Position numbers and translations under genes: made by a program
From: Pseudomonadota bacterium
GTDB taxonomy: Bacteria > Pseudomonadota > Gammaproteobacteria > Burkholderiales > JBEEJL01
Length of the DNA: 36,769 nt
Reading direction: 5' to 3'
NCBI GenBank assembly: GCA_043769625.1
Contig: JAYVJD010000306.1
Span: 1-36,769 of the forward strand
Part shown: positions 1 through 31,798 of the stretch, piece by piece
How positions within the stretch are numbered: position 1 is the stretch's first letter
Layout: each line of letters opens with the position of its first letter
The notes under the pieces: generated by a model
Databases searched by the model: none
The model's input: the letters and a program-made list of their open reading frames with translations, nothing else
What the model was told of the DNA's origin: nothing

Positions 1-3000
1 CCAGCAACCTACGAAACCGTGACTGAACAAGTAATGGTCAAGGCTGGATCGAAGCGTCTGGAAAGCTCACCAGTTGCATACGAAGCCGGTTCAGAACAAG
101 TTCAGACTCGCGCGCCATCCAAGCGTCTGGAAGTCATTCCTGCAACTTATGAAACCGTGACCGAACAAGTATTGGTTAAGCCAGCAACGAAACAGTTGCA
201 AGTTATTCCGGCAACCTACGAAACGGTCACCGAACAAGTTCAAGTTCGCGCGCCGTCCAAGCGTCTGGATGCAACGCCAGCCGTTTACGAAACCGTCACC
301 GAACAAGTATTGGTGAAGCCTGCTTCCAAGCGTATTGAAATCATTCCAGCAACGTACGAAACGCAAGCTGAACAAGTTCAAGTAAGATCTGCGTCGAAGC
401 GCATGGAAGTTATTCCTGGCACATTCGAGACCGTGACCGAACAAGTATTGGTTAAGCCGGCATCGAAGCGTATGGAATTGATTCCTGCGACTTACGAAAC
501 GCAAACCGAACAAGTTCAAGTGCGCGCGCCGTCGAAGCGTTTGGAAGTGATTCCAGCAACCTTCGAAACCGTGACCGAACAAGTATTGGTCAAGCCCGCC
601 ACCAAGCGTCTGGAATTGATCCCGGCAACGTTTGAAACCGTCACCGAACAAGTGCAAGTTAAGTCCGCATCGAAGCGTCTGGAAGTCATCCCAGCCACGT
701 TCGAAACCGTGACTGAACAAGTGTTGACCAAGCCTGCTTCCAAGCGCGTGGAATTGATTCCTGCGACTTACGAAACAGCCGCTACACAAATTCAAACCCG
801 CTCACCGTCGAAGCGTCTAGAAGTGATTCCTGGCACATTCGAGACCGTGACCGAACAAGTATTGGTCAAGCCAGCCTCCAAGCGTTTGGAGATGGTTCCG
901 GCTGTTTATGAAACCGTCACCGAACAAGTACAAGTTAAAGCACCATCGAAGCGCGTTGAAGTGATTCCGGCAACGTACGAAACCGTGACCGAACAAGTCA
1001 TGGTCAAGCCTGCTTCAAAATCAGTCGAAGTCATGGCCGCTACTATGGTTCCAGGCTCCGAACAAATTCAAGTTCGCGCACCGGGTAAGCGCCTGGAAGT
1101 AATTCCAGCCACGTACGAAACCGTGACCGAACAAGTATTGGTCAAGCCTGCTTCGAAGCGCGTTGAAGTGATTCCTGCAACTTATGAAACCACCACCGAA
1201 CAAGTGATGGTCAAGCCAGCCGGCAAGCGTCTGGAAGTCATTCCAGCAACATACGAAACCGTAGCTGAGCAAGTACAAGTGCGTGATCCATCCAAGCGTC
1301 TTGAGTCAATTCCTGGTTCGTACGAAACCGTAACTGAACAAGTTCAAGTTCGCGCACCTTCGAAGCGTATCGAAGTCATTCCAGCAACCTTTGAAACCGT
1401 GACCGAACAAGTCATGGTCAAGCCAGCCTCGAAGCGTCTCGAAGTGATTCCAGCAACATTTGAGACAGTGTCCGAGCGCATCGAAGTTCGTGCACCGACG
1501 ACCCGTTTGCAAACCGGTACCGTTGCTTACGAAACCATCACCGAGCGCGTCGAAGTCAAAGCTGCATCGAAGCGTCTGGAAGTAATTCCTGGTAGCTACG
1601 AAACAGTTACTGAGCAAATTCAAGTTCGCCCAGCTTCCAAGCGTCTGGAAATGGTCCCGGCTGTTTATGAGACTGTGTCCGAGCAAGTATTGGAAACCGC
1701 AGGCTATACAACCTGGAAACGCGGTACCAGCAGCGCCGGTGCAACCATCGGTAGCGGCTCAAGCGTACGTCCGGGTGCAACGGGCGGCAACACCAGCATC
1801 AGCACCACAGTTGGCGGCAAAAGCACCATCGGTGGCGTAGTCGGACAGACCATCGACACCCGGGTTGATGAAACCTCTGGCGATTTGCTGTGCTTGGTTG
1901 AAGTTCCACCAGTCTATAAAACCATCACCAAACAAATCGTTAAGACCCCAGCTTCGACACGCGAAATCGACGTGCCAGCTGAGTTCAGCACGATTTCTAA
2001 ACAAGCCGTAAAAACAACGCCGACCACACGTGAAATCGACGTGCCGGCTGAATACCGTACCATCACCAAGCAAGTGCCGCGCGGTTATAGCGCAACTGGC
2101 GTAGCGGGTGCAGGTTCGGCTGCTGGTGCAGGTGGCGCAAGCGCTGCCGGTGCTGCCGGTGCTGCCGGTGCGGGTACCAGCGGTGCAGGCGGTGCAAAAA
2201 CTGCTGGCGGCGCAGGTTCAGCCGGTTCAGCTTCTAACTACGCTGACAGCGGAACACGCGAAATTCAAGTTCCAGGTGAATACTCCACGATCACCAAGCA
2301 AGTGGTGAAATCACCTGCTACGACACGTGAAGTAGAAATTCCTGCTGAATTCCGCACGATTACCAAACAAGTAGTGAAGACGCCAGCAACGACACGCGAA
2401 GTTGAAGTAGCGGGCGAATTCCGCACCGTTTCACGTCAAGTGCCGAAAAACGCTGCTAGCACTCGCGAAGTTCAAGTCGCCGGTGAAAGCCGTACGGTTT
2501 CCAAGCAGATCGTTAAGTCTCCTGCCGCAACACGTGAAGTTGAAGTGCCAGCAGAATTCAGAACGGTTTCCAAGCAGATCGTGAAAACGCCTGCTTCGAC
2601 ACGTGAAGTTGAAGTCCCAGCTGAATACGCAACAGTGACCAAGCAAGTGGTTAAGACCCCGGCTTCGACACGTGAAGTTGAAGTCGCTGGCGAATTCCGC
2701 AGCGTGGCCACACAGCAAGTCAAAGCACCGGCTTCTTCGCGTGAAGTTGAATCTCCAGCGCAGTTCACCACCATCACCAAGCAAGTAGTCAAGACACCGG
2801 CTACCACCCGCGAAGTTGAAGTGCCAGGCGAGTTCCGCACCGTGAGCCGTCAAGTCGTTAAGACCCCTGCCGGTACACGTGAAGTTGAAGTGGCTGCTGA
2901 ATACGCAACCGTGACCAAGCAAGTAGTCAAGACTGCTGCTGCTGCTCGCGAAGTTGAAGTGCCAGGCGAATCCCGCTCGGTGGCTCAACAAGTTGTGAAG

Positions 3001-4473
3001 ACACCAGCCAGCGCACGCGAAGTTGAAGTGGCTGCTGAATACAGCACCATCACCAAGCAAGTAGTCAAGACACCGGCTACCACGCGTGAAGTTGAAGTGC
3101 CGGGCGAGTTCCGCACCGTGTCACGTCAAGTGGTCAAAACACCGGCAACTACGCGCGAAGTTGAAGTGCCAGCTGAATACTCCACCATCAGCAAGCAGAT
3201 CGTTAAGACACCTGCAAGCGTGCGTGAAGTTGAAGTGCCAGGTGAGTTCCGCACTGTCGCTCGTCAAGTGGTGAAAACCCCAGCCAGCGCGCGTGAAGTG
3301 GAAATTCCAGCTGAGTACGCAACGGTCACCAAGCAAGTGGTCAAAACAGCGGCTGCTACGCGTGACGTTGAAGTGCCAGGTGAATTCCGCACCGTGGCTC
3401 GCCAAGTAGTCAAGACACCGGCTGCTACGCGTGAAATTGACGTGCCAGCTGAATACGCAACTGTCACCAAGCAAGTGGTAAAAACACCGGCTGGTGCACG
3501 TGAGTCCGAAGTGGCTGGTGAATTCCGCACCATCACCAAACAAGTCGTGAAGACGCCAGCAACGACCAAAGAAATCGAAGTGCCAGCGCAGTACGCAACG
3601 GTCACCAAGCAAGTAGTCAAGACGCCAGCAGCGACACGTGAAGTTGAAGTGGCGGGTGAATTCCGTTCCGTAGCGACGAAAGTTGCCAAGGGTACGGGCG
3701 CTACGCGTGAAGTGGACATTCCGGCTGAGTTCTCCGCCATCACCAAACAAGTGCTGAAAACACCAGCCTCGACGCGTGAAGTCGAAGTGCCTGCGCAGTT
3801 CACCACGATTACTAAACAAATCGTGAAGACACCAGCTAGCACCCGTGAAGTGGACATTCCTGCTGAGTTCTCCACCGTTGCCAAGCAAGTGGTCAAGTCA
3901 CCGACCACCACGCGCGAAGTTGAAGTGCCTGCACAGTTCACCACCATCACCAAGCAAGTGGTCAAAACACCGGCCTCTACCCGCGAAGTGGCTATCCCGG
4001 CTGAGTTCCGCACTGTAACGAGACAGGTTCCGATTGCAATGGCGATGGCTGAAGAAGAAATTCCAGCGCAATACACCACCATCACCCGTCAAGTGGTCAA
4101 AACACCGGCCACCACCCGTGAAGTTGAAGTGCCGGCTGAATACCGCACGGTCACCGTCAATAAGTTGGTGCAGCCTGCTTCGCAGAACCGTGTTGCCGTC
4201 GCGCCTGAGTATCAGACTGTAACGCGCACGATCAAAGTTTCTGACGGTACGCAAGAATGGCGTCAAGTGCTGTGCGAAACCAATGCTACTTCCACCAAGA
4301 TCAGCGAAATTCAAAATGCGCTGAGCAAAGCGGGATATCAGACACCGGTTTCGGGACGTATCGACAACACCTTCCTGAGCGCACTGAATAGCTACCAGCG
4401 TGCAAAGGGCCTGCCAGTTGATCAATACATCAACATGGCAACCGTGAAGTCATTGAATGTTTCGCCTAAGTAA
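1..4473 (+). CDS. Giant tandem-repeat envelope protein (about 55 copies of a 23-aa unit) with C-terminal peptidoglycan-binding domain; 5' end lies outside the window
   Basis: Frame 1 is open from nt 1 (PATYETVTEQV continues the repeat) to TAA at 4471-4473. Block 1 (nt 1 to ~1690) has ~24 copies of PATYETVTEQV[LQ]V[KR][PA][AP]SKRLEVI, alternating in a 46-aa super-period. Gly/Ala/Ser-rich linkers lie at ~1700-1860 and ~2085-2255. Block 2 (~1900-4200) has ~30 copies of VKTPA[ST]TREVEVP[AG]E[YF]xTV[TS][KR]QV. The C-terminus (ISEIQNALSKAGY...LNSYQRAKGLPVD) resembles PG_binding_1. A strong terminator follows. Confidence 0.8.
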   Translation, partial: PATYETVTEQVMVKAGSKRLESSPVAYEAGSEQVQTRAPSKRLEVIPATYETVTEQVLVKPATKQLQVIPATYETVTEQVQVRAPSKRLDATPAVYETVTEQVLVKPASKRIEIIPATYETQAEQVQVRSASKRMEVIPGTFETVTEQVLVKPASKRMELIPATYETQTEQVQVRAPSKRLEVIPATFETVTEQVLVKPATKRLELIPATFETVTEQVQVKSASKRLEVIPATFETVTEQVLTKPASKRVELIPATYETAATQIQTRSPSKRLEVIPGTFETVTEQVLVKPASKRLEMVPAVYETVTEQVQVKAPSKRVEVIPATYETVTEQVMVKPASKSVEVMAATMVPGSEQIQVRAPGKRLEVIPATYETVTEQVLVKPASKRVEVIPATYETTTEQVMVKPAGKRLEVIPATYETVAEQVQVRDPSKRLESIPGSYETVTEQVQVRAPSKRIEVIPATFETVTEQVMVKPASKRLEVIPATFETVSERIEVRAPTTRLQTGTVAYETITERVEVKAASKRLEVIPGSYETVTEQIQVRPASKRLEMVPAVYETVSEQVLETAGYTTWKRGTSSAGATIGSGSSVRPGATGGNTSISTTVGGKSTIGGVVGQTIDTRVDETSGDLLCLVEVPPVYKTITKQIVKTPASTREIDVPAEFSTISKQAVKTTPTTREIDVPAEYRTITKQVPRGYSATGVAGAGSAAGAGGASAAGAAGAAGAGTSGAGGAKTAGGAGSAGSASNYADSGTREIQVPGEYSTITKQVVKSPATTREVEIPAEFRTITKQVVKTPATTREVEVAGEFRTVSRQVPKNAASTREVQVAGESRTVSKQIVKSPAATREVEVPAEFRTVSKQIVKTPASTREVEVPAEYATVTKQVVKTPASTREVEVAGEFRSVATQQVKAPASSREVESPAQFTTITKQVVKTPATTREVEVPGEFRTVSRQVVKTPAGTREVEVAAEYATVTKQVVKTAAAAREVEVPGESRSVAQQVVKTPASAREVEVAAEYSTITKQVVKTPATTREVEVPGEFRTVSRQVVKTPATTREVEVPAEYSTISKQIVKTPASVREVEVPGEFRTVARQVVKTPASAREVEIPAEYATVTKQVVKTAAATRDVEVPGEFRTVARQVVKTPAATREIDVPAEYATVTKQVVKTPAGARESEVAGEFRTITKQVVKTPATTKEIEVPAQYATVTKQVVKTPAATREVEVAGEFRSVATKVAKGTGATREVDIPAEFSAITKQVLKTPASTREVEVPAQFTTITKQIVKTPASTREVDIPAEFSTVAKQVVKSPTTTREVEVPAQFTTITKQVVKTPASTREVAIPAEFRTVTRQVPIAMAMAEEEIPAQYTTITRQVVKTPATTREVEVPAEYRTVTVNKLVQPASQNRVAVAPEYQTVTRTIKVSDGTQEWRQVLCETNATSTKISEIQNALSKAGYQTPVSGRIDNTFLSALNSYQRAKGLPVDQYINMATVKSLNVSPK

Positions 4474-4490
4474 TTAAGCAGTCGCTACAC

Positions 4491-4523
4491 AAAAAACCGC
4501 AGGCTAGTCCTGCGGTTTTTTTT
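4491..4523 (+). terminator. Rho-independent terminator after the repeat-protein gene
   Basis: AAAAAA-CCGCAGG-CTAGT-CCTGCGG-TTTTTTTT: 7-bp GC stem, 5-nt loop, T8 tail, 18 nt after the stop codon. Confidence 0.85.
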
Positions 4524-4643
4524 CGCCTGTTATTTATTGCGTAAAGTGCGCCATAGCATTGCACTAGCGTTATCTTGTCTATTCAATGCGTGTTAACGTC
4601 GTTGATATTTTTCTTATTCAGTTAAGCAAGGCAGGCAAAACGC

Positions 4644-5309
4644 ATGGCTATTTGGCAAAAAAATAAATTAAGTTATCTATTTGTTTTTATTCAACTAATT
4701 TGTGTAGCGTCAGCATTGGCTGTGGACGTAAACGTGGTCGGGTTGTTCCAAGGCAAAGCCCTGGTCGAAATCGATCGCGGCAATCCGCGCATGATGACTG
4801 AGGGCCAGAAAATCGACGACATCATACTCATCAGCGCCAATTCTGCTGGCGCGGTAATCGAGATAACAGGCAAGCGGCACGCTATAGGATTGGGTCAATC
4901 TGCCTCAGGCGGCGGCGCAAAACAAACTGCAGGCGGTGCAGGCAGCATTGTATTGACGGCAGATAGTCGAGGTCACTATTACTCCACCGGCGCCATCAAT
5001 GGCGCGACGACCCGTTTCCTGTTGGATACCGGCGCCACCAGCGTGGCCATGAGTGGTGCCGAGGCAGCAAGGCTGGGTTTGGACTATAAAAAAGGCCAGC
5101 CGGGCATGGCCAGCACCGCCAACGGCGTGGCACCGATGTATATCATTGTGGCCGACAAAGTCAGCGTCGGCGACATCACCTTGCATCAAGTCGAAGTCTC
5201 CGTGGTCGAAGGCGCAGGCTTGCCCATCACGCTACTCGGTATGAGTTTTCTCAATCGTGTGGAAATGAAACAGAACGGCGGGAAGATGACGCTGACCAAG
5301 CGCTATTAA
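4644..5309 (+). CDS. Retropepsin-like (clan AA, TIGR02281-type) aspartic protease, membrane anchored
   Basis: N-terminal hydrophobic anchor. GHYYSTGAINGATTRFLLDTGATSVAMS carries the DTGA catalytic motif. LLGMSFLNRVEMKQNGGKMTL is the family-typical C-terminus. Confidence 0.85.
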   Translation: MAIWQKNKLSYLFVFIQLICVASALAVDVNVVGLFQGKALVEIDRGNPRMMTEGQKIDDIILISANSAGAVIEITGKRHAIGLGQSASGGGAKQTAGGAGSIVLTADSRGHYYSTGAINGATTRFLLDTGATSVAMSGAEAARLGLDYKKGQPGMASTANGVAPMYIIVADKVSVGDITLHQVEVSVVEGAGLPITLLGMSFLNRVEMKQNGGKMTLTKRY

Positions 5310-5314
5310 ATCCA

Positions 5315-5707
5315 CTAAAGCGAATTAACAAAAATCATCGATGCAACAAAAGTGAGTAAGGCAGAGATAGAAATCGCTAGCCATAAGCGTTCGGTTCGTT
5401 CTTGATCGCGAGGGATCGCAGTATCCCAGAGATATCCAAGATTTTCTATGACGCGAAAGCTGCCCAGATAGGCGCCCAAAAGCGCCGCCAGCAAAGAAAT
5501 GGCGCAAACAGATAGCAAAGGCGAGATGAACAGCGCTGAAATGGAATCTGCAGGCAGCCGTATCATTCGTTTTCTAACTAGTAAGATGGCCGCGATGAAA
5601 ATTACGCAAAGAAAAAATAGGGTGAAAAAGACGGAAATAAACGCTATCACTGCGCCAGCGATTCGGTCTAGCAAGGTGATTGGCGTAGTCGATTCTGAAT
5701 TATGCAT
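5315..5707 (-). CDS. Small multi-pass membrane protein, function unknown
   Basis: 130-aa ORF with 3-4 hydrophobic helices. Convergent with the aspartic protease gene. No recognisable motif. Confidence 0.5.
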   Translation of the reverse strand: MHNSESTTPITLLDRIAGAVIAFISVFFTLFFLCVIFIAAILLVRKRMIRLPADSISALFISPLLSVCAISLLAALLGAYLGSFRVIENLGYLWDTAIPRDQERTERLWLAISISALLTFVASMIFVNSL

Positions 5708-5733
5708 GCTGATCTAGCAGCGCTAAGCTAGCT

Positions 5734-6543
5734 TTATTTTTTTGTTTTGTCTTTTTCTATTAGCGCATAAGCCGAGTGATTGTGGATAGATTCAAAGTTC
5801 TCCGACTCCACCACATAAGCATCAATACGCGGATCTTTATTCAACTGCGCGGCGACATCGCGGACTAAATCTTCGACGAATTTCGGGTTGTCGTAAGCGC
5901 GTTCGGTGACGAATTTTTCATCGGGGCGTTTGAGCAGGCCGTAGAGTTCGCTCGACGCTTGCGACTCGGCGATCTGGAGTAAATCTTCTATCCACACAAA
6001 AGTATTGGTGCGTGCGCTGATGGTGACGTGCGAGCGTTGGTTGTGCGCGCCGCGCTCGGAGATTTTTTTCGAGCAGGGGCATAAGCTGGTGACCGGTACG
6101 ACGACTTTGGTGTTGAGATGATACTCGCCGCCGCGTTTGATTTCGCCAGTTAATGTCACTTCGTAATCGAGCAGCGATTTTACGCCGGAGACGGGCGCGG
6201 TTTTGTTGACGAAAAAGGGGAAGGTCATTTCGATGTGACCAGCTTCCGCGTCGAGGCGCTTCACCATGTCGCGCAAAATACTTTCAAATGACTCGACCGA
6301 AATTTCGTGCTCGTGTTGATTCAAAATTTCGACAAAGCGCGACATGTGCGTGCCCTTGAAATGATGCGGCAAGTGCACGTACATATTAAACATCGCGACG
6401 GTGTGTTGCACGCCGCTGGTTTTATCTTTCACCATCACCGGATGACGCAGCGATTTAATGCCAACGCGATCGATGTCGAGTTGGCGGGTGTCGGCCGAGC
6501 CTTGGACGTCGGCGATGGGAAGGTGTTTGTCGCGTTGATTCAT
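5734..6543 (-). CDS. folE2: GTP cyclohydrolase FolE2 (GCYH-IB)
   Basis: [28 protein letters not shown]...[14 protein letters not shown]...[20 protein letters not shown] are FolE2 hallmarks. I chose the ATG at 6543 ([14 protein letters not shown]) because it matches family N-termini. The longest ORF starts at 6573. Confidence 0.9.
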
Positions 6544-22077: not shown

Positions 22078-22139
22078 GGTTCTATATTCTGCGTAATTCA
22101 GAGAGTCTATTTTATGTCCCAAATAATCAGATATATGGC

Positions 22140-22703
22140 TCAGTAGGCCTTCCGTAATCGTTCATTTTTTAGCATTTCTAAAACATGTGATGGGCATTTT
22201 TTGTTTTGTACAGTATGAAATATGACAGGACGATAATCTTTCTTGATTGTAATCGCTTTAAATGGGAATTTCGTGTCAGCAGTGTATGTAACGTCTTGAG
22301 CAGTACATTCACTTTCCACAACTTCGACGCGTAGCTTATTGCCAATTTTCGATACTGATAATATGTTAATTTCCCAATTTGCAGGCTTAGGACCCGAGGC
22401 AACTAACAGCATTGTTTCTTTTTCAAAGTTAATATTTTCAGGCAATTTGACAAAATTCAGATCGCCCACCCAAGCGTCGTAGAAATTTTTAGCGTCCTGA
22501 ATTACTAGGGTTTGTTTTTTGGGAGGGCCGGTGATGTCGTTTAGTGTTAATATTTGCCTAAATTTAATATGCTGATTTTTTTGGATTCTAATGTTATTAC
22601 TGGCGAAGCATTTCGATTGGAATCCATACACAAAAATCAATACTGCCAGCATTGCTGCGGGCAGTATTTTTTTCAGTCGCAAATTAATTTTGCAGAACAA
22701 CAT
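22140..22703 (-). CDS. Secreted PrcB_C-like protein (putative subtilase partner or stabiliser)
   Basis: The ATG at 22703 overlaps the S8 stop (TGATG). Signal peptide KKILPAAMLAVLIFVYGFQSKCFA. The mature part (LVIQDAKNFYDAWVG..INFEKETMLLVASGPKPANWEINILSV..LRVEVVE..FPFKAITIKK) follows the pattern I remember for PrcB_C, the partner of Treponema dentilisin. About 33% GC by eye. Confidence 0.5.
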   Translation of the reverse strand: MLFCKINLRLKKILPAAMLAVLIFVYGFQSKCFASNNIRIQKNQHIKFRQILTLNDITGPPKKQTLVIQDAKNFYDAWVGDLNFVKLPENINFEKETMLLVASGPKPANWEINILSVSKIGNKLRVEVVESECTAQDVTYTADTKFPFKAITIKKDYRPVIFHTVQNKKCPSHVLEMLKNERLRKAY

Positions 22704-24070
22704 CAAAAGGACCCGGCCTGTGGAATAAAAATAGAGCTACCATCAGGTTGTATTGAGCCAAGCAAACCCGCCGCTTTATTTTTTATTGCTCCTTCAATAC
22801 TAATAGCAGTTTGATTAATTTGAGTTTGACTAATTAGCGCGGCAAGACCCGCTACAAATGGCGTTGCGAATGACGTGCCATAAACGTACTCATAGTTATT
22901 ACGTGCAGGAATGGTTGTAGTCCGAATTGCAACTCCAGGAGCAAATATTTCCACACACGGGCCGTAGGGGCTTTGAAAATCAAGCCGCCCGAAATTATCA
23001 ATTGAGCCAACTGTCATGACTCCTAATGTAGATGCTCCAATGTTTGCTGGGGATGTATTACATGCGGTAGTCCCTGCAGCGTTTCCTGCGGCTACCGCCG
23101 AGAAAATTCCCTTGGTAGTAACGGGAACGTAGACTGTTCCAATAAAAGAACCTATTTTTATTGTCTTGGTGTATTGCGTCTTGGTTGCAGCGTTAATAAA
23201 GGCGCTACCTACTGTAACTTCAAAGCCAAATGAGGGATTTAAAGCGCCAGCGCTATAATTAATTATTCCAGGAGACTGAGAAGAGTTTGCGTAAAACACA
23301 TCGACTTCATTTCGTACCGCTATGTCTACGGCTCTTTTAACGCTTGTAGTTGCGATATTCTCAGTACAGGCTTCGGTTATTTTAATGCTAATTATTGGCA
23401 CTCCCGGTGCAACGCCCGCTACACCAAATCCATTATTTCGAGCCCCAGCAATTCCAGCGATGGATGTGCCATGGCCTATACAATCATTAATAGTGCCATC
23501 AATGTTGGCTGATAGTCGGCTAGCCACGTTTAGGTCGGGATGAAGGTCTACACCACTATCTAAAACATATAGCCTTGTTTTACTAAAATTAATTACTCCT
23601 GTATTGAGACCGGATTTTGCTGAACTTAAATGAGCGTTAATTGATTTTATACCCCACGAAATAAATTGCCCACCTACAGAAGAATCAAACCATTGTTGAG
23701 AAAATATAGTAAGAGCGTTGGGGCTAGGTTTCGGAGCAGCTTGAAGTTGAAATAAAACATTTTCTTCTATATGTGCGCCTGGAATGGCTTTGATTTCAAC
23801 GATTTGTTTTTGATTCAAATTTGCAGCAAATCCATTGGCTGCCCAGCTATAAATGTGCGTCGCTTTGAATGCATGTTTTTTTTCTAACCTTTGAAGTAAT
23901 ATTTTCATCTTCGGCTGTTGTTCGTGCCACATTTCGGGATGTTTTTGGTGACGCTCATCTTCTTCAACTTCGCCATCGTCTTCTCTCTCTACGACGGAAT
24001 CGTCAAAGGTGACGATGTGGGTGGGGTGTTTAGGATCTAATTTATTTGCAAACGCGGGGGGGGGGGGCAA
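22703..24070 (-). CDS. S8 family (subtilisin-like) serine peptidase with I9 propeptide; as sequenced, out of frame with its own start and signal peptide
   Basis: Triad motifs VLDSGVD (Asp), GHGTSIAGIAG (His), AAGN (oxyanion Asn) and GTSFATPFVAGLAAL (Ser). I9-like propeptide THIYSWAANGFAANLNQKQIVEIKAIPG. The ORF as it stands begins at a TTG next to a C12 run. Confidence 0.85.
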   Translation of the reverse strand: MPPPPAFANKLDPKHPTHIVTFDDSVVEREDDGEVEEDERHQKHPEMWHEQQPKMKILLQRLEKKHAFKATHIYSWAANGFAANLNQKQIVEIKAIPGAHIEENVLFQLQAAPKPSPNALTIFSQQWFDSSVGGQFISWGIKSINAHLSSAKSGLNTGVINFSKTRLYVLDSGVDLHPDLNVASRLSANIDGTINDCIGHGTSIAGIAGARNNGFGVAGVAPGVPIISIKITEACTENIATTSVKRAVDIAVRNEVDVFYANSSQSPGIINYSAGALNPSFGFEVTVGSAFINAATKTQYTKTIKIGSFIGTVYVPVTTKGIFSAVAAGNAAGTTACNTSPANIGASTLGVMTVGSIDNFGRLDFQSPYGPCVEIFAPGVAIRTTTIPARNNYEYVYGTSFATPFVAGLAALISQTQINQTAISIEGAIKNKAAGLLGSIQPDGSSIFIPQAGSF

Positions 24071-24116
24071 ACATTACGAAACTGAATAACACGGCAAGCA
24101 GGTGGCGATTAAGCAT
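24042..24116 (-). other. Detached start codon and signal-peptide segment of the S8 peptidase gene
   Basis: SD AGGAGA (24122-24127) lies 5 nt upstream of the ATG at 24116. This frame reads MLNRHLLAVLFSFVMFAPPPRVCK*, a good signal peptide that runs into the C12 tract and stops 12 nt after it. Removing one C fuses it to the S8 ORF. Confidence 0.7.
24056..24067. repeat. Homopolymer G12 (C12 on the coding strand) at the signal-peptide/propeptide junction of the S8 gene
   Basis: Twelve consecutive G on the + strand. They encode PPPP in the main ORF frame. Confidence 0.95.
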
Positions 24117-24314
24117 GACTTTCTCCTGTTGGTATTCGTTTTTGGGGAACTTCAAATCTTAGGCTGCGCTTCCAGCGATTGGCTCGTCAAGTTAAATTTT
24201 GTTTCGTAAGGTAATGTGTAATCTAATGAGTAGAAGTAAATTTCCAATAAAATAAATACGTTATAGAAAAATATTTTTATTTGTCCAACCACTTTTTTTG
24301 TTAAAAAGAAGACG

Positions 24315-24344
24315 AAAAAAAGAGCGCCTCGGCGCTCTTTTTTT
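24315..24344 (-). terminator. Bidirectional rho-independent terminator downstream of rplS
   Basis: AAAAAAA-GAGCGCC-TC-GGCGCTC-TTTTTTT, 16 nt after the rplS stop, at the border of the AT-rich islet. Confidence 0.85.
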
Positions 24345-26671: not shown

Positions 26672-27382
26672 TTATTCTTTAAGCGTAAACGGATTAAAGT
26701 CCGTGTCGCGGTCGTAATAGTCTTCTTGCTCCGCGCGTTTAAGCCAATTGACGATTTTATACGTCATTGGCGTGAAGGCGATTTCGACACCGACTTTGGT
26801 AATAAATTGCGCCAACATCACCGTTGGTAATTTGTCGTCGGGAATAATTCCGGTACCGTAAAACGCCAGCGGATAAAATAAAAGTGAATCGACCGCTTCG
26901 CCAAAAATCGTCGAGCCGATGGTGCGGCTCCACAAGTGTTTGCCCGCCGTGAGGATTTTCATTTTCGCCAACACAAACGAATTCACAAACTCGCCGCAAG
27001 CAAAAGCGATGAGCGAAGCGAGAGCAACCCGCCACGCACCACCGAACGCGATTTCGTAAGCTTGCTGATTTTTCCACCACGGCGCGGGCGGCAAACTCAC
27101 CACCACCCAGGCCATAAACGACGCAAACAACAGCGCGGCAAAGCCGGCCCAAATCACCCGACGCGAGCGCGCGTAGCCGTACACCTCGGTGAGAATGTCG
27201 CCGAATACGTACGAAATTGGAAAAAATAACACGCCGGCGCCAAAAGTGATCACGCCGATAATCGGCAAATCCAGCTGCGCACCTTTGGCCGGCCCGATGA
27301 GGTTCGAGCACAGCAACACGACGACAAACGCCGTCATCACTAGATCGAAATATTTATAATTAGCGCGAGGAGGTGAAGTCAT
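26672..27382 (-). CDS. yhhQ: Queuosine-precursor transporter (YhhQ/VUT family)
   Basis: 236 aa, 6 TM. FPISYVFGDILTEVYGY...GEFVNSFVLAKMK...STIFGEAVDSLLFYPLAF is the COG1738/YhhQ pattern. Confidence 0.88.
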   Translation of the reverse strand: MTSPPRANYKYFDLVMTAFVVVLLCSNLIGPAKGAQLDLPIIGVITFGAGVLFFPISYVFGDILTEVYGYARSRRVIWAGFAALLFASFMAWVVVSLPPAPWWKNQQAYEIAFGGAWRVALASLIAFACGEFVNSFVLAKMKILTAGKHLWSRTIGSTIFGEAVDSLLFYPLAFYGTGIIPDDKLPTVMLAQFITKVGVEIAFTPMTYKIVNWLKRAEQEDYYDRDTDFNPFTLKE

Positions 27383-27595: not shown

Positions 27596-27606
27596 GGGGG
27601 GGGGGG
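27596..27606. repeat. Intergenic homopolymer G11
   Basis: Eleven G followed by TGGGTGG, 38 nt downstream of the methyltransferase stop and within a GC-rich palindromic block. Confidence 0.9.
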
Positions 27607-27643: not shown

Positions 27644-28192
27644 TTAATTCAAATTCACCGCGCGCAATTCCCATACACCCGCAGGCGGCGCGTTGCGCCA
27701 AATAAAATTCGTTCGCGTCCAGACGAAACCGACGGGGGCAGTAAACGGCTCGCGCGGCTGGTAGGTAAACTGGATCAATTTTCGGATCGGCGATACGCGC
27801 AAAAAAGCGCAAATGCTGGCCACGGTTTCTTGCGTAATGTGGGGCGGCAGCGAACGAAACGGCAGACTCGACACCAGTGCCGTGTTCAGCGGTGCATCGG
27901 TCAAATTATCGATCACTTGCTTCGCCGTATCATTGCGCACATCAATATCGGGAAATTTTTGTTGCAGCTTGCGCGCCAGGCCCGACTCCAGCTCGACCGC
28001 AATCAACGGCACATCAGGATGCGAACCGATTAACGCTTTGGTTACCGAGCCCGTGCCGGCACCTAACTCCACCACCAAGTCAGCCCTATTCGTCGCGCGC
28101 GCCATCGCGTTGGCGAGATACTTCGACGAAGGCGCCAAGCAGCCCATCGTCGCCGGGTTTCTGATCAAAGAAATAAAAAATTGTGCAGACAT
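27644..28192 (-). CDS. Small class I SAM-dependent methyltransferase (COG3963 / phospholipid N-methyltransferase-like)
   Basis: FISLIRNPATMGCLAPSSKYLA (family N-terminal motif). SAM motif I is VVELGAGTGSVTKAL. 182 aa. Confidence 0.75.
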   Translation of the reverse strand: MSAQFFISLIRNPATMGCLAPSSKYLANAMARATNRADLVVELGAGTGSVTKALIGSHPDVPLIAVELESGLARKLQQKFPDIDVRNDTAKQVIDNLTDAPLNTALVSSLPFRSLPPHITQETVASICAFLRVSPIRKLIQFTYQPREPFTAPVGFVWTRTNFIWRNAPPAGVWELRAVNLN

Positions 28193-30232: not shown

Positions 30233-31798
30233 ATGGCAAAAACTATCCGAAAAAATATCAGTCCAAAAAAATCGATCCAAAAAAACAAAACACCTCTGCT
30301 TGAGCATAATAAAACCCCTGAGCTTTTTTTCGGCTTAATAGCGCCATCCGGGACAGATCTAACACAACCAATAGCCAGTTTAAAAAGTGAACTTCAAAAG
30401 CTCAGATATAAGGTTAAAGAGGTAAATTTAAGTGGCCTTATAACAAGTTTTTTAACAAAAAATACGTCCACTCAAAATGAAAAAGATAGGTTAACAAATT
30501 TAATGAGATATGGCACAGAAATTAGAGAGAAAACTTCAAGAGGAGATGCGATTGCTCTATTAGGAATTTCAGAAATACAACGTTTACGAAATCTTGAAAG
30601 TGAAGATGATATTGGAGTTGCATATATTATTAAGTCGCTAAAACATTCTGAAGAAATAAATACTTTGCGAAAAGTTTATGGCCAAGGATTTTATTCGGTA
30701 TCAGTTTATTCTCCTAGGGGTTCAAGAATTAATGAGCTAGCTAGCCGAATCGAAAAGTCCAAATCCAGCAAGCATGGTTCTCGTTCAGAAGCAGAGGCCC
30801 TAGTAGAAAGAGATGAGTCTGAAAAAGGACATCCATTAGGTCAAAACGTAAAGGATGCTTTTCCGCTAGCTGATTTTTTCCTAGACGTAAGAATAAAGAA
30901 AAAAATTAATGATGAGATAAAGAGATTTATTGAATTAATTTTTTCACATCCCTATCACACGCCTACGAAAGATGAGTATGCAATGTACCATGCAAAATCT
31001 GCGGCTTTACGGTCCGCAGATTTAGGTAGGCAAGTGGGAGCATCAATTACAACAAAAAACTGTGATTTGATTTCAATTGGTTGTAATGATGTTCCTCGCT
31101 CAGGTGGTGGTTTGTACTGGCCTGATGATGAAGAGGACGGTCGAGATTTTCGTAAAGGCAATGATCCTATACATGAACAGAAGGAACAAATTCTTGGCGA
31201 GCTAATAGAGCGTTTACGTGATAATAAATGGTTGTCGAAGCCTTTAAAAGACCAAGCTCCCCAAAATTTATTAAACGAATCATTGGTCGGTAAATATAAA
31301 CATGTATTTAAAGATACTTTGGTAATGAATTTGTTAGAGTTTGGTAGAAGTGTGCATGCAGAAATGGCGGCGTTGATGGATTCAGCAAGAAGAGGTGTTT
31401 CAGTAAAGGGAGCAACGCTATATACAACTACATTCCCATGCCACCTCTGCGCAAAGCATATCATCGCATCAGGTATAGACCGGGTTGTATATATTGAGCC
31501 CTATCCAAAAAGTAGGGCGCTTAATTTATTTGATGATTCAATAAGTGTTGATGGGGCGAAAGACGCATCAAATAAAATTTCTTTTGAACCATTTGTTGGA
31601 GTTGCGCCAAGGCAATATTTGAATCTTTTTGAAGCACCTATTGATAGAAAAGATAATCGAGGAAAAATAATTGATTGGCCTGCGAACGGATTCATTCCCC
31701 GAGTGAAAAGATTAACAGATACTTATATTTTTCTCGAAACTCGAATAATCGCTGAAATTATCCCCAAAATGAAGCTGGTTGCAAAATCTATTGTTTGA
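30233..31798 (+). CDS. Kinase-like / dCMP-deaminase fusion protein: AvcD (DcdV) / anti-phage dCTP-deaminase-type defence protein
   Basis: C-terminal zinc deaminase motifs VHAEMAAL and FPCHLCAKHII, preceded by DEYAMYHAKSAALRSADLGRQVGASI. The N-terminal domain begins with a degenerate P-loop-like ELFFGLIAPSGTDLTQ. 521 aa, strong SD (CAGGAGG), ~35% GC by eye. Confidence 0.8.
   Translation: MAKTIRKNISPKKSIQKNKTPLLEHNKTPELFFGLIAPSGTDLTQPIASLKSELQKLRYKVKEVNLSGLITSFLTKNTSTQNEKDRLTNLMRYGTEIREKTSRGDAIALLGISEIQRLRNLESEDDIGVAYIIKSLKHSEEINTLRKVYGQGFYSVSVYSPRGSRINELASRIEKSKSSKHGSRSEAEALVERDESEKGHPLGQNVKDAFPLADFFLDVRIKKKINDEIKRFIELIFSHPYHTPTKDEYAMYHAKSAALRSADLGRQVGASITTKNCDLISIGCNDVPRSGGGLYWPDDEEDGRDFRKGNDPIHEQKEQILGELIERLRDNKWLSKPLKDQAPQNLLNESLVGKYKHVFKDTLVMNLLEFGRSVHAEMAALMDSARRGVSVKGATLYTTTFPCHLCAKHIIASGIDRVVYIEPYPKSRALNLFDDSISVDGAKDASNKISFEPFVGVAPRQYLNLFEAPIDRKDNRGKIIDWPANGFIPRVKRLTDTYIFLETRIIAEIIPKMKLVAKSIV

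Follow-up and report, generated by a model that had tools for sequence, protein, structure and literature searches.

A poly-C tract separating a subtilase gene from its signal peptide in an uncultured environmental Burkholderiales: a probable slipped-strand ON/OFF switch

We analysed a 36,769-nucleotide (nt) stretch of DNA from a Pseudomonadota bacterium (contig JAYVJD010000306.1; the whole stretch is hereafter called the window), in which a gene for an S8-family protease (subtilase) is separated from its own start codon and signal peptide by 12 consecutive C residues. With a probability that we put at roughly 70%, this C12 tract is a slipped-strand ON/OFF translational contingency switch: it lies within the signal peptide of a pre-pro-subtilase, in the c-region, and would gain or lose one C by slipped-strand mispairing at replication. 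At tract lengths of C8, C11 or C14, a ribosome starting from the ATG at 24116 would read MLNRHLLAVLFSFVMFA-PPP-AFA into the I9 propeptide and the S8 protease, which would then be exported (ON); at any other length it would meet a stop within 3-9 codons and no exportable protease would be made (OFF). The number of prolines ahead of the AxA cleavage site would vary from 2 to 4, a variation that is presumably tolerated and that would leave every in-frame length functional. In the OFF state, expression of an overlapping downstream gene for a PrcB-like partner would probably drop too. The assembled C12 allele would itself be OFF, one slip away from ON.

The signal peptide and the protease lie in different frames

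The features of the locus are collected in Table 1; coordinates are window positions, and the gene, the tract and the leader are all on the minus strand. Reading from the ATG that follows the Shine-Dalgarno (SD) sequence gives the peptide MLNRHLLAVLFSFVMFA up to the tract region. The C12 run begins 49 nt past this ATG, that is, it is a long mononucleotide run within the 5' coding region, and after it the assembled frame reads ...PPPRVCK and ends at TAA 24044-24042. In another frame, a 455-codon open reading frame (ORF; 22703-24070) opens with a TTG that abuts the tract. Its product matches the S8 subtilases (Pfam PF00082, 3e-30) and the I9 propeptide family (Pfam, 2.7e-5, above the cutoff), and the motifs VLDSGV, GHGT, AAGN and GTSFATP are intact, accounting for the Asp/His/Ser triad and the oxyanion Asn. 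In the PDB it comes closest to the classical subtilisins savinase and BPN' (1e-22). Pfam recognizes I9 and S8 only, and the S8 domain is followed by no more than about 20 residues. An earlier reading of the letters of this DNA (the original prediction) had described the SD sequence 5 nt ahead of the ATG, the signal peptide, the C12 run, the early stop and a subtilase ORF running on from the tract in another frame, and our examination of the locus agrees with it on all of these points.

Next, we edited the run in silico. Tract lengths of C8, C11 and C14 each produced a single pre-pro-enzyme of 469-471 amino acids (...FAPPPAFA/NKLDPKHPTHIVTF...), as had been predicted for the fusion of the two parts, whereas C9, C10, C12 and C13 led to termination within 23-26 codons. 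A one-base change in the tract toggles between the full-length and the truncated product, and the same was observed upon editing two homologous loci, L001 and L002, which are described below. At all three loci both OFF frames terminate 3-9 codons past the tract. In all lineages the sequence AATAAATTAG provides TAA (24044-24042) and TAG (24039-24037) in the two frames that do not encode the protease. The predicted Sec signal peptide of the pre-pro-enzyme exists only once the frame is restored, as judged from its n-, h- and c-regions, the AFA motif and hydropathy (mean Kyte-Doolittle values of 2.6-3.1 for the signal peptides of the window, L002 and L001). With the frame restored, the predicted signal peptide precedes the I9 propeptide.

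Two other start codons were considered and rejected. The TTG at 24070 has neither an SD sequence nor a signal peptide. The internal ATG used by the deposited gene call (P0001; 409 amino acids, 22703-23932), which corresponds to M47 of the ORF, also has neither. This call leaves out the signal peptide as well as codons 1-46 of the ORF, and with them the most conserved segment of the family, HPTHIVTFD...EEDERH, which belongs to the propeptide. The L002 homologue is likewise annotated from an internal Met. Annotation pipelines that call the gene from an internal ATG in this manner would hide this class of switch.

Table 1. Features of the protease cassette and its upstream boundary (window positions)
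Feature	Position	Strand	Remarks
Intrinsic terminator of upstream rplS	24315-24344	-	13-bp stem, 4-nt loop, T-run; parts the ribosomal operon from the protease cassette
Untranslated leader/promoter region	24117-24207	-	91 nt; 88% identical to L002, 68% to L001
Shine-Dalgarno AGGAGA	24122-24127	-	Read directly; invariant in all three lineages; 5-nt spacer to ATG
Start codon ATG (24116-24114) and signal-peptide n- and h-regions, then G of an Ala codon	24068-24116	-	MLNRHLLAVLFSFVMF, sixteen codons
C12 homopolymer	24056-24067	-	Proposed slippage tract; Pro run of the signal-peptide c-region in the ON frame
AATAAATTAG	24037-24046	-	Same in all lineages; N-K-L in the protease frame
Pro-subtilase frame after the tract: AFA cleavage motif, I9 propeptide, S8 catalytic domain, stop	22703-24055	-	450 codons, intact
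Partner gene, distant PrcB-like	22140-22703	-	187 amino acids; N-terminal signal sequence

The tract is conserved at the same junction, and its length differs by lineage

The C12 tract is not a product of chance. Two stretches of the window are C or G runs of 11 or more, a length reached in 0 of 100 dinucleotide-preserving shuffles of it; G/C runs of 6-10 are absent, yet two of 11-12 are present. As a rule, prokaryotic genes contain fewer poly(C) and poly(G) runs than expected (PMC2831843).

We then compared the tract with those of three other loci for which DNA was retrieved, L001, L002 and L003, so that three lineages are represented in all (Table 2). The family is very rare: a set of 5.8 billion clustered proteins contains four clusters of it, it was not found among 185,579 GTDB species representatives or in IMG/VR, and searches of JGI metagenome contigs with a protein pattern and a DNA pattern returned no further members. 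The original prediction had proposed that homologues be checked for lack of the homopolymer, and the opposite was observed: a poly-C run sits at exactly the same junction in every retrieved member, with a length that differs by lineage (C12, C10 and C11). The occurrence of homologous tracts in relatives argues against a one-off sequencing or assembly error. Each assembled length is exactly one base off an in-frame length, and the shift needed to restore the frame is a 1-nt deletion in the window and L001 and a 1-nt insertion in L002. This difference in direction between loci fits bidirectional slippage rather than recoding in a fixed direction. One more protein of the family, P0004 (55% identical), starts MPPPASAEK, as a gene caller would yield from an out-of-frame tract; this start by itself suggests that P0004 is in the OFF state. 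In the distant subtilases P0005-P0008 (31-33% identity) the signal peptide is of the usual kind, in frame and lacking a Pro run at the equivalent position, and the restored N-terminus of the window protein is colinear with their signal peptides and I9 propeptides.

Table 2. Poly-C tracts at the signal-peptide junction of the retrieved loci
Locus	Source	Protein identity to the window	Tract	In-frame lengths	Assembled state
Window	This contig		G-C12-GCG	8, 11, 14	Out of frame
L002	Logan SRR32618771	49%	A-C10-GCG	8, 11	Out of frame
L001	JGI 3300081627	49%	A-C11-GGCG	7, 10, 13	Out of frame
L003	Logan SRR22198278	Identical	C12	8, 11, 14	Out of frame

Between lineages, the synonymous divergence (pS) is 0.73-0.80 and hence saturated, and the nonsynonymous divergence (pN) is 0.31-0.32 overall, being 0.15 in the first 100 codons vs. 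0.37 in the remainder. The ORFs of 447-450 codons are intact with their catalytic motifs in all three lineages, and the signal peptide is kept as a peptide (MLHRHLLAVLFSFIMF in L002 and MNIRHLIAMLFVFVLL in L001), the changes in it being synonymous and conservative. Intact ORFs, a pN below the saturated pS and a conserved signal-peptide frame together indicate long-standing translation of these genes, on an evolutionary time scale, from the upstream ATG. Among the codons for proline CCC is in the minority, accounting for 37 of the 219 Pro codons (17%) in the housekeeping ORFs of the window. Since 10-12 C residues were kept while neutral sites turned over, and since CCC is a minority codon, the comparison argues for selection acting on the DNA repeat itself and not on a Pro-Pro-Pro peptide. 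Taken together, the presence of junction poly-C in the family, its absence from the relatives at 31-33% identity and its retention despite saturated synonymous sites support the phase variation that had been proposed for this gene.

The second long run of the window (27596-27606) is G11 on the plus strand, i.e., C11 on the minus strand, and is intergenic. It lies 38 nt past the stop of a methyltransferase-like gene (27644-28192, minus strand) and about 214 nt upstream of a gene for a Vut_1/YhhQ-type transporter (26672-27382, minus strand), ahead of a terminator-like hairpin. The equivalent spacer of a relative, L005, is without this run and about 75 nt around it.

Assembled tract lengths and a hint of coexisting alleles

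Over 2,715 bases L003 matches the window at 100% identity; it comes from the same population, independently assembled with a k=31 de Bruijn pipeline, as is the practice for Logan contigs (PMC12424806). Its positions 1-31 correspond to window positions 24086-24056, such that its first 31-mer consists of exactly 19 upstream nt and C12. A contig start at this point is predicted if the 30-mer made up of these 19 nt and C11 precedes both C (the C12 allele) and G (the in-frame C11 allele) in the reads. We take this as a hint, from the k-mer composition of one contig end, that C11 (ON) and C12 alleles may coexist in the source population.

Several points weigh against a switch. The start of L003 could equally stem from a single-nucleotide polymorphism at one upstream base or from recurrent read errors. 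C12 is backed by a second assembler only, possibly working from the same reads, as the window and L003 represent the same population. All assembled alleles are OFF and the ON allele was never seen, an outcome with a chance of about 0.2-0.3 under random phase (three to four lineages). Long G/C tracts are not read reliably by Illumina sequencing (PMC9187656), and any of the lengths given here may thus be wrong by one base. Tract lengths were taken from assemblies, and heterogeneity in the population and reversibility are what we infer. Lastly, the host is uncultured and the family very small.

The observation that every assembled length is exactly one base away from an in-frame length also invites another explanation, in which the tract is real, its assembled length is wrong by one base and the gene is in frame (C11) and simply ON. 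Illumina is known to misbehave at G/C tracts, to the point that a reference genome misstated the dominant tract length (PMC9187656), and the L003 contig breaks at the tract. We consider this explanation improbable: two different assemblers agree on C12, and the errors would have to run in opposite directions across the data sets (+1, +1 and -1). Moreover, a conserved homopolymer of 10-12 nt at this site would be a hypermutable switch regardless, so that such an error would change the called state and not the nature of the element.

Recoding and decay as alternatives to slipped-strand switching

As no in-frame allele was seen, we also considered that the gene is permanently out of frame and that the run is decoded mainly at the level of RNA or the ribosome, with full-length protein arising from +1 ribosomal frameshifting on CCC-C by tRNA-Pro or from slippage (stuttering) of RNA polymerase. 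This, too, we regard as a long shot. In its favour, none of the four assembled alleles is in frame, a shift of exactly +1 would restore the window and L001, and C runs read by tRNA-Pro are classic +1-prone sites that are restrained by m1G37 (the product of TrmD) and EF-P (PMC6335274). Transcriptional slippage, too, is promoted by long homopolymers, but the documented bacterial cases concern A/T runs (PMC1088944). Among the homologues, neither the direction of the shift nor the length of the slippery site, both of which a programmed site would hold constant, is fixed: L002 needs -1 or +2, and the tract is 10, 11 or 12 nt long by lineage, a variation that programmed sites normally avoid. We found no conserved stimulatory structure downstream, where stops occur within 3-9 codons. 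The proximity of trmD to the cassette in the window is coincidental, since the L002 cassette adjoins FBPase/PRK.

In the improbable event that recoding governs this gene, expression would be constitutive at a low level or sensitive to the state of translation. Protease expression from 'ON+1' alleles, C12 among them, would then be graded and dependent on the translation state, with sensitivity to m1G37/TrmD and EF-P, and a mobile protease-PrcB cassette in free-living bacteria would carry a three-level ON/leaky/OFF system. Given that CCC-C codons are prone to the very +1 shift that the window and L001 need, C12 alleles may be leaky.

Least plausible is a decaying pseudogene, in which a frameshift in a mutation-prone run killed an acquired, unused protease: the gene is out of frame as assembled and its cassette is accessory, low in GC and absent from close relatives, but no other disabling mutation is found in 447-450 codons of three lineages despite saturated synonymous sites, pN is well below pS with the catalytic residues intact, and the separated signal peptide, the SD sequence and the leader are conserved.

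The protease is encoded with a PrcB-like partner in a portable cassette

The start codon of the partner gene overlaps the protease stop codon (TGATG in the window, TAATG in L001), which bears out the predicted translational coupling of the downstream gene. From this arrangement it is plausible that an OFF tract lowers expression of the partner, through lost coupling and polarity. Homologues of the partner gene are found downstream of the protease gene in L001, L002 and L003; L002 has three tandem copies (L002 positions 4413-6299), and most of these paralogues have a lipobox. Direct searches with the partner gave no match in Pfam (even at E<=10), NCBIfam or PDB sequences, and a word-indexed homology search returned the protein itself only. 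An exhaustive phmmer search yielded 10 remote relatives, 7 of which carry the Pfam domain PrcB_C (PF14343), and hhalign of the partner against PrcB_C gave a probability of 99.1% (E 2e-18). On the strength of the exhaustive phmmer search and the profile-profile comparison, which are the only two lines of evidence for the link to PrcB, we tentatively place the partner in the PrcB (PF14343) family, on a divergent branch that escapes direct detection by Pfam. In Treponema denticola, PrcB is a lipoprotein that is needed for the PrtP protein and helps to anchor the complex, and a review describes it as having no homologs outside oral Treponema (PMC8167434). The present assignment would extend the family, as a subtilase partner, well beyond oral treponemes.

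Upstream of the cassette lies the rpsP-rimM-trmD-rplS operon. The GC content of the cassette is 0.39-0.42, compared with 0.50 for the window, and the cassette is absent from close relatives. In L002 it stands in an unrelated genomic context, next to FBPase/PRK. The leader is alike nonetheless at these loci (Table 1), and farther upstream the identity falls to 57%. Given unrelated contexts and a saturated gene body, the identity of the leader to that of L002 suggests either strong regulatory constraint or a recent exchange of the 5' module. Leader homology combined with differing contexts indicates that the cassette moves as a single accessory unit made up of leader, switch, protease and partner. 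A sigma-70 scan of the leader gave no convincing promoter. Consensus folding of the leader gave only a weak hairpin (-3.5 kcal/mol), in which UUCC pairs with the GGAG of the SD sequence, with no informative covariation, and we do not claim it as a feature. An Rfam scan returned no match at gathering thresholds, and a tRNA scan found no tRNA gene; the conserved 5' region is not accounted for by any known riboswitch or leader.

In a relative, L004 (TrmD 87% identical), an esterase gene and a TPR gene occupy the slot between rplS and a Mem_trans transporter gene. This variable slot spans 22078-24314 in the window and 6615-8596 in L004, and a gene for a tyrosine recombinase (XerC/D-like) is found a few kb away in both.

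Comparison with known systems

Homopolymer contingency loci have been documented mostly in host-adapted pathogens and commensals. The locus described here is most likely a switch of this known kind, and its host is an uncultured environmental member of the Burkholderiales for which Sulfuricella, Gallionella and Nitrosospira are the closest named relatives. What makes it of interest is the environmental host, the portability of the cassette and the depth to which the repeat is conserved; its confirmation would provide a clear example, from outside a host-pathogen setting, of a costly secreted enzyme that is turned ON and OFF stochastically.

The Neisseria meningitidis protease NalP (AspA) is an S8 protease with a coding poly-C tract of 6-15, which is ON at 7, 10 or 13 and sometimes splits contigs (PMC3723659). 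Both systems have (in our case, by prediction) an exported S8 protease switched by coding poly-C and ON at every third length, and both reside in a betaproteobacterial host. NalP, a lipoprotein, is an autotransporter and has a C-terminal beta-barrel, a domain that Pfam does not find in the window protein; the latter has an I9 propeptide and a PrcB-like partner, its sequence relation to NalP is limited to the S8 fold, and its host is an uncultured environmental Burkholderiales and not a human commensal or pathogen. The window protease is an analogue of NalP and not a member of its group.

In architecture the locus is identical to the Bifidobacterium breve pilin genes bbr_0113 and bbr_1889, in which an ORF with a Sec signal is followed by a G11-12 tract and the ORF of the mature protein, in a mixed G11/G12 population; there, the tract has polar effects on downstream genes and is conserved across species, and the reference genome has the OFF length (PMC9187656). 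In both cases signal peptide and mature protein are in two ORFs split by an 11-12 nt G/C run, and the second ORF has no SD sequence or signal of its own. The cargo differs (pilin vs. protease), B. breve is a Gram-positive gut commensal, and heterogeneity was measured directly in B. breve, while for the window the L003 contig start gives a hint of it.

In the dentilisin locus of T. denticola (prcB-prcA-prtP), as is probably the case here, the gene for an S8 subtilase is accompanied by one for a PrcB-family protein of some 20 kDa (PMC8167434). However, the cassette has two genes, with no PrcA, and its order is reversed, the partner being downstream; the partner matches PrcB_C only via intermediates or profile-profile comparison, and dentilisin is not known to be tract-switched. 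Against the NCBIfam model denti_PrtP the protease scored 27 bits (cutoff 300), and hence fails as a PrtP equivalog. With no PrcA and no PrtP equivalog, the cassette is not a dentilisin locus.

Host assignment and other features of the window

Judging from protein identities, the window is chromosomal DNA of an uncultured environmental betaproteobacterium (Burkholderiales). TrmD is 85-87% identical to that of two metagenome-assembled genomes (MAGs) and about 71% identical to those of Sulfuricella and Gallionellaceae MAGs; Ffh is 94% identical to that of the Burkholderiales MAG MFD01576 and at most 76% identical to all else. Neither variants of the Neisseriaceae DNA uptake sequence (DUS) nor the Pasteurellaceae uptake signal sequence (USS) occur in the window, so that there is no sign of a Neisseria-like host despite the poly-G/C habit.

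Elsewhere in the window, a markedly low-GC region (30233-31798; 0.33-0.38) encodes a 521-amino-acid protein with a cytidine/deoxycytidylate deaminase domain, which also matches MafB19-like toxin deaminases and may be an acquired toxin or defence gene. At 19-4473, a 1,484-amino-acid ORF contains BspA-type leucine-rich repeats and a C-terminal peptidoglycan-binding domain, and its internal repeats are the source of the most frequent 12-mers of the window.

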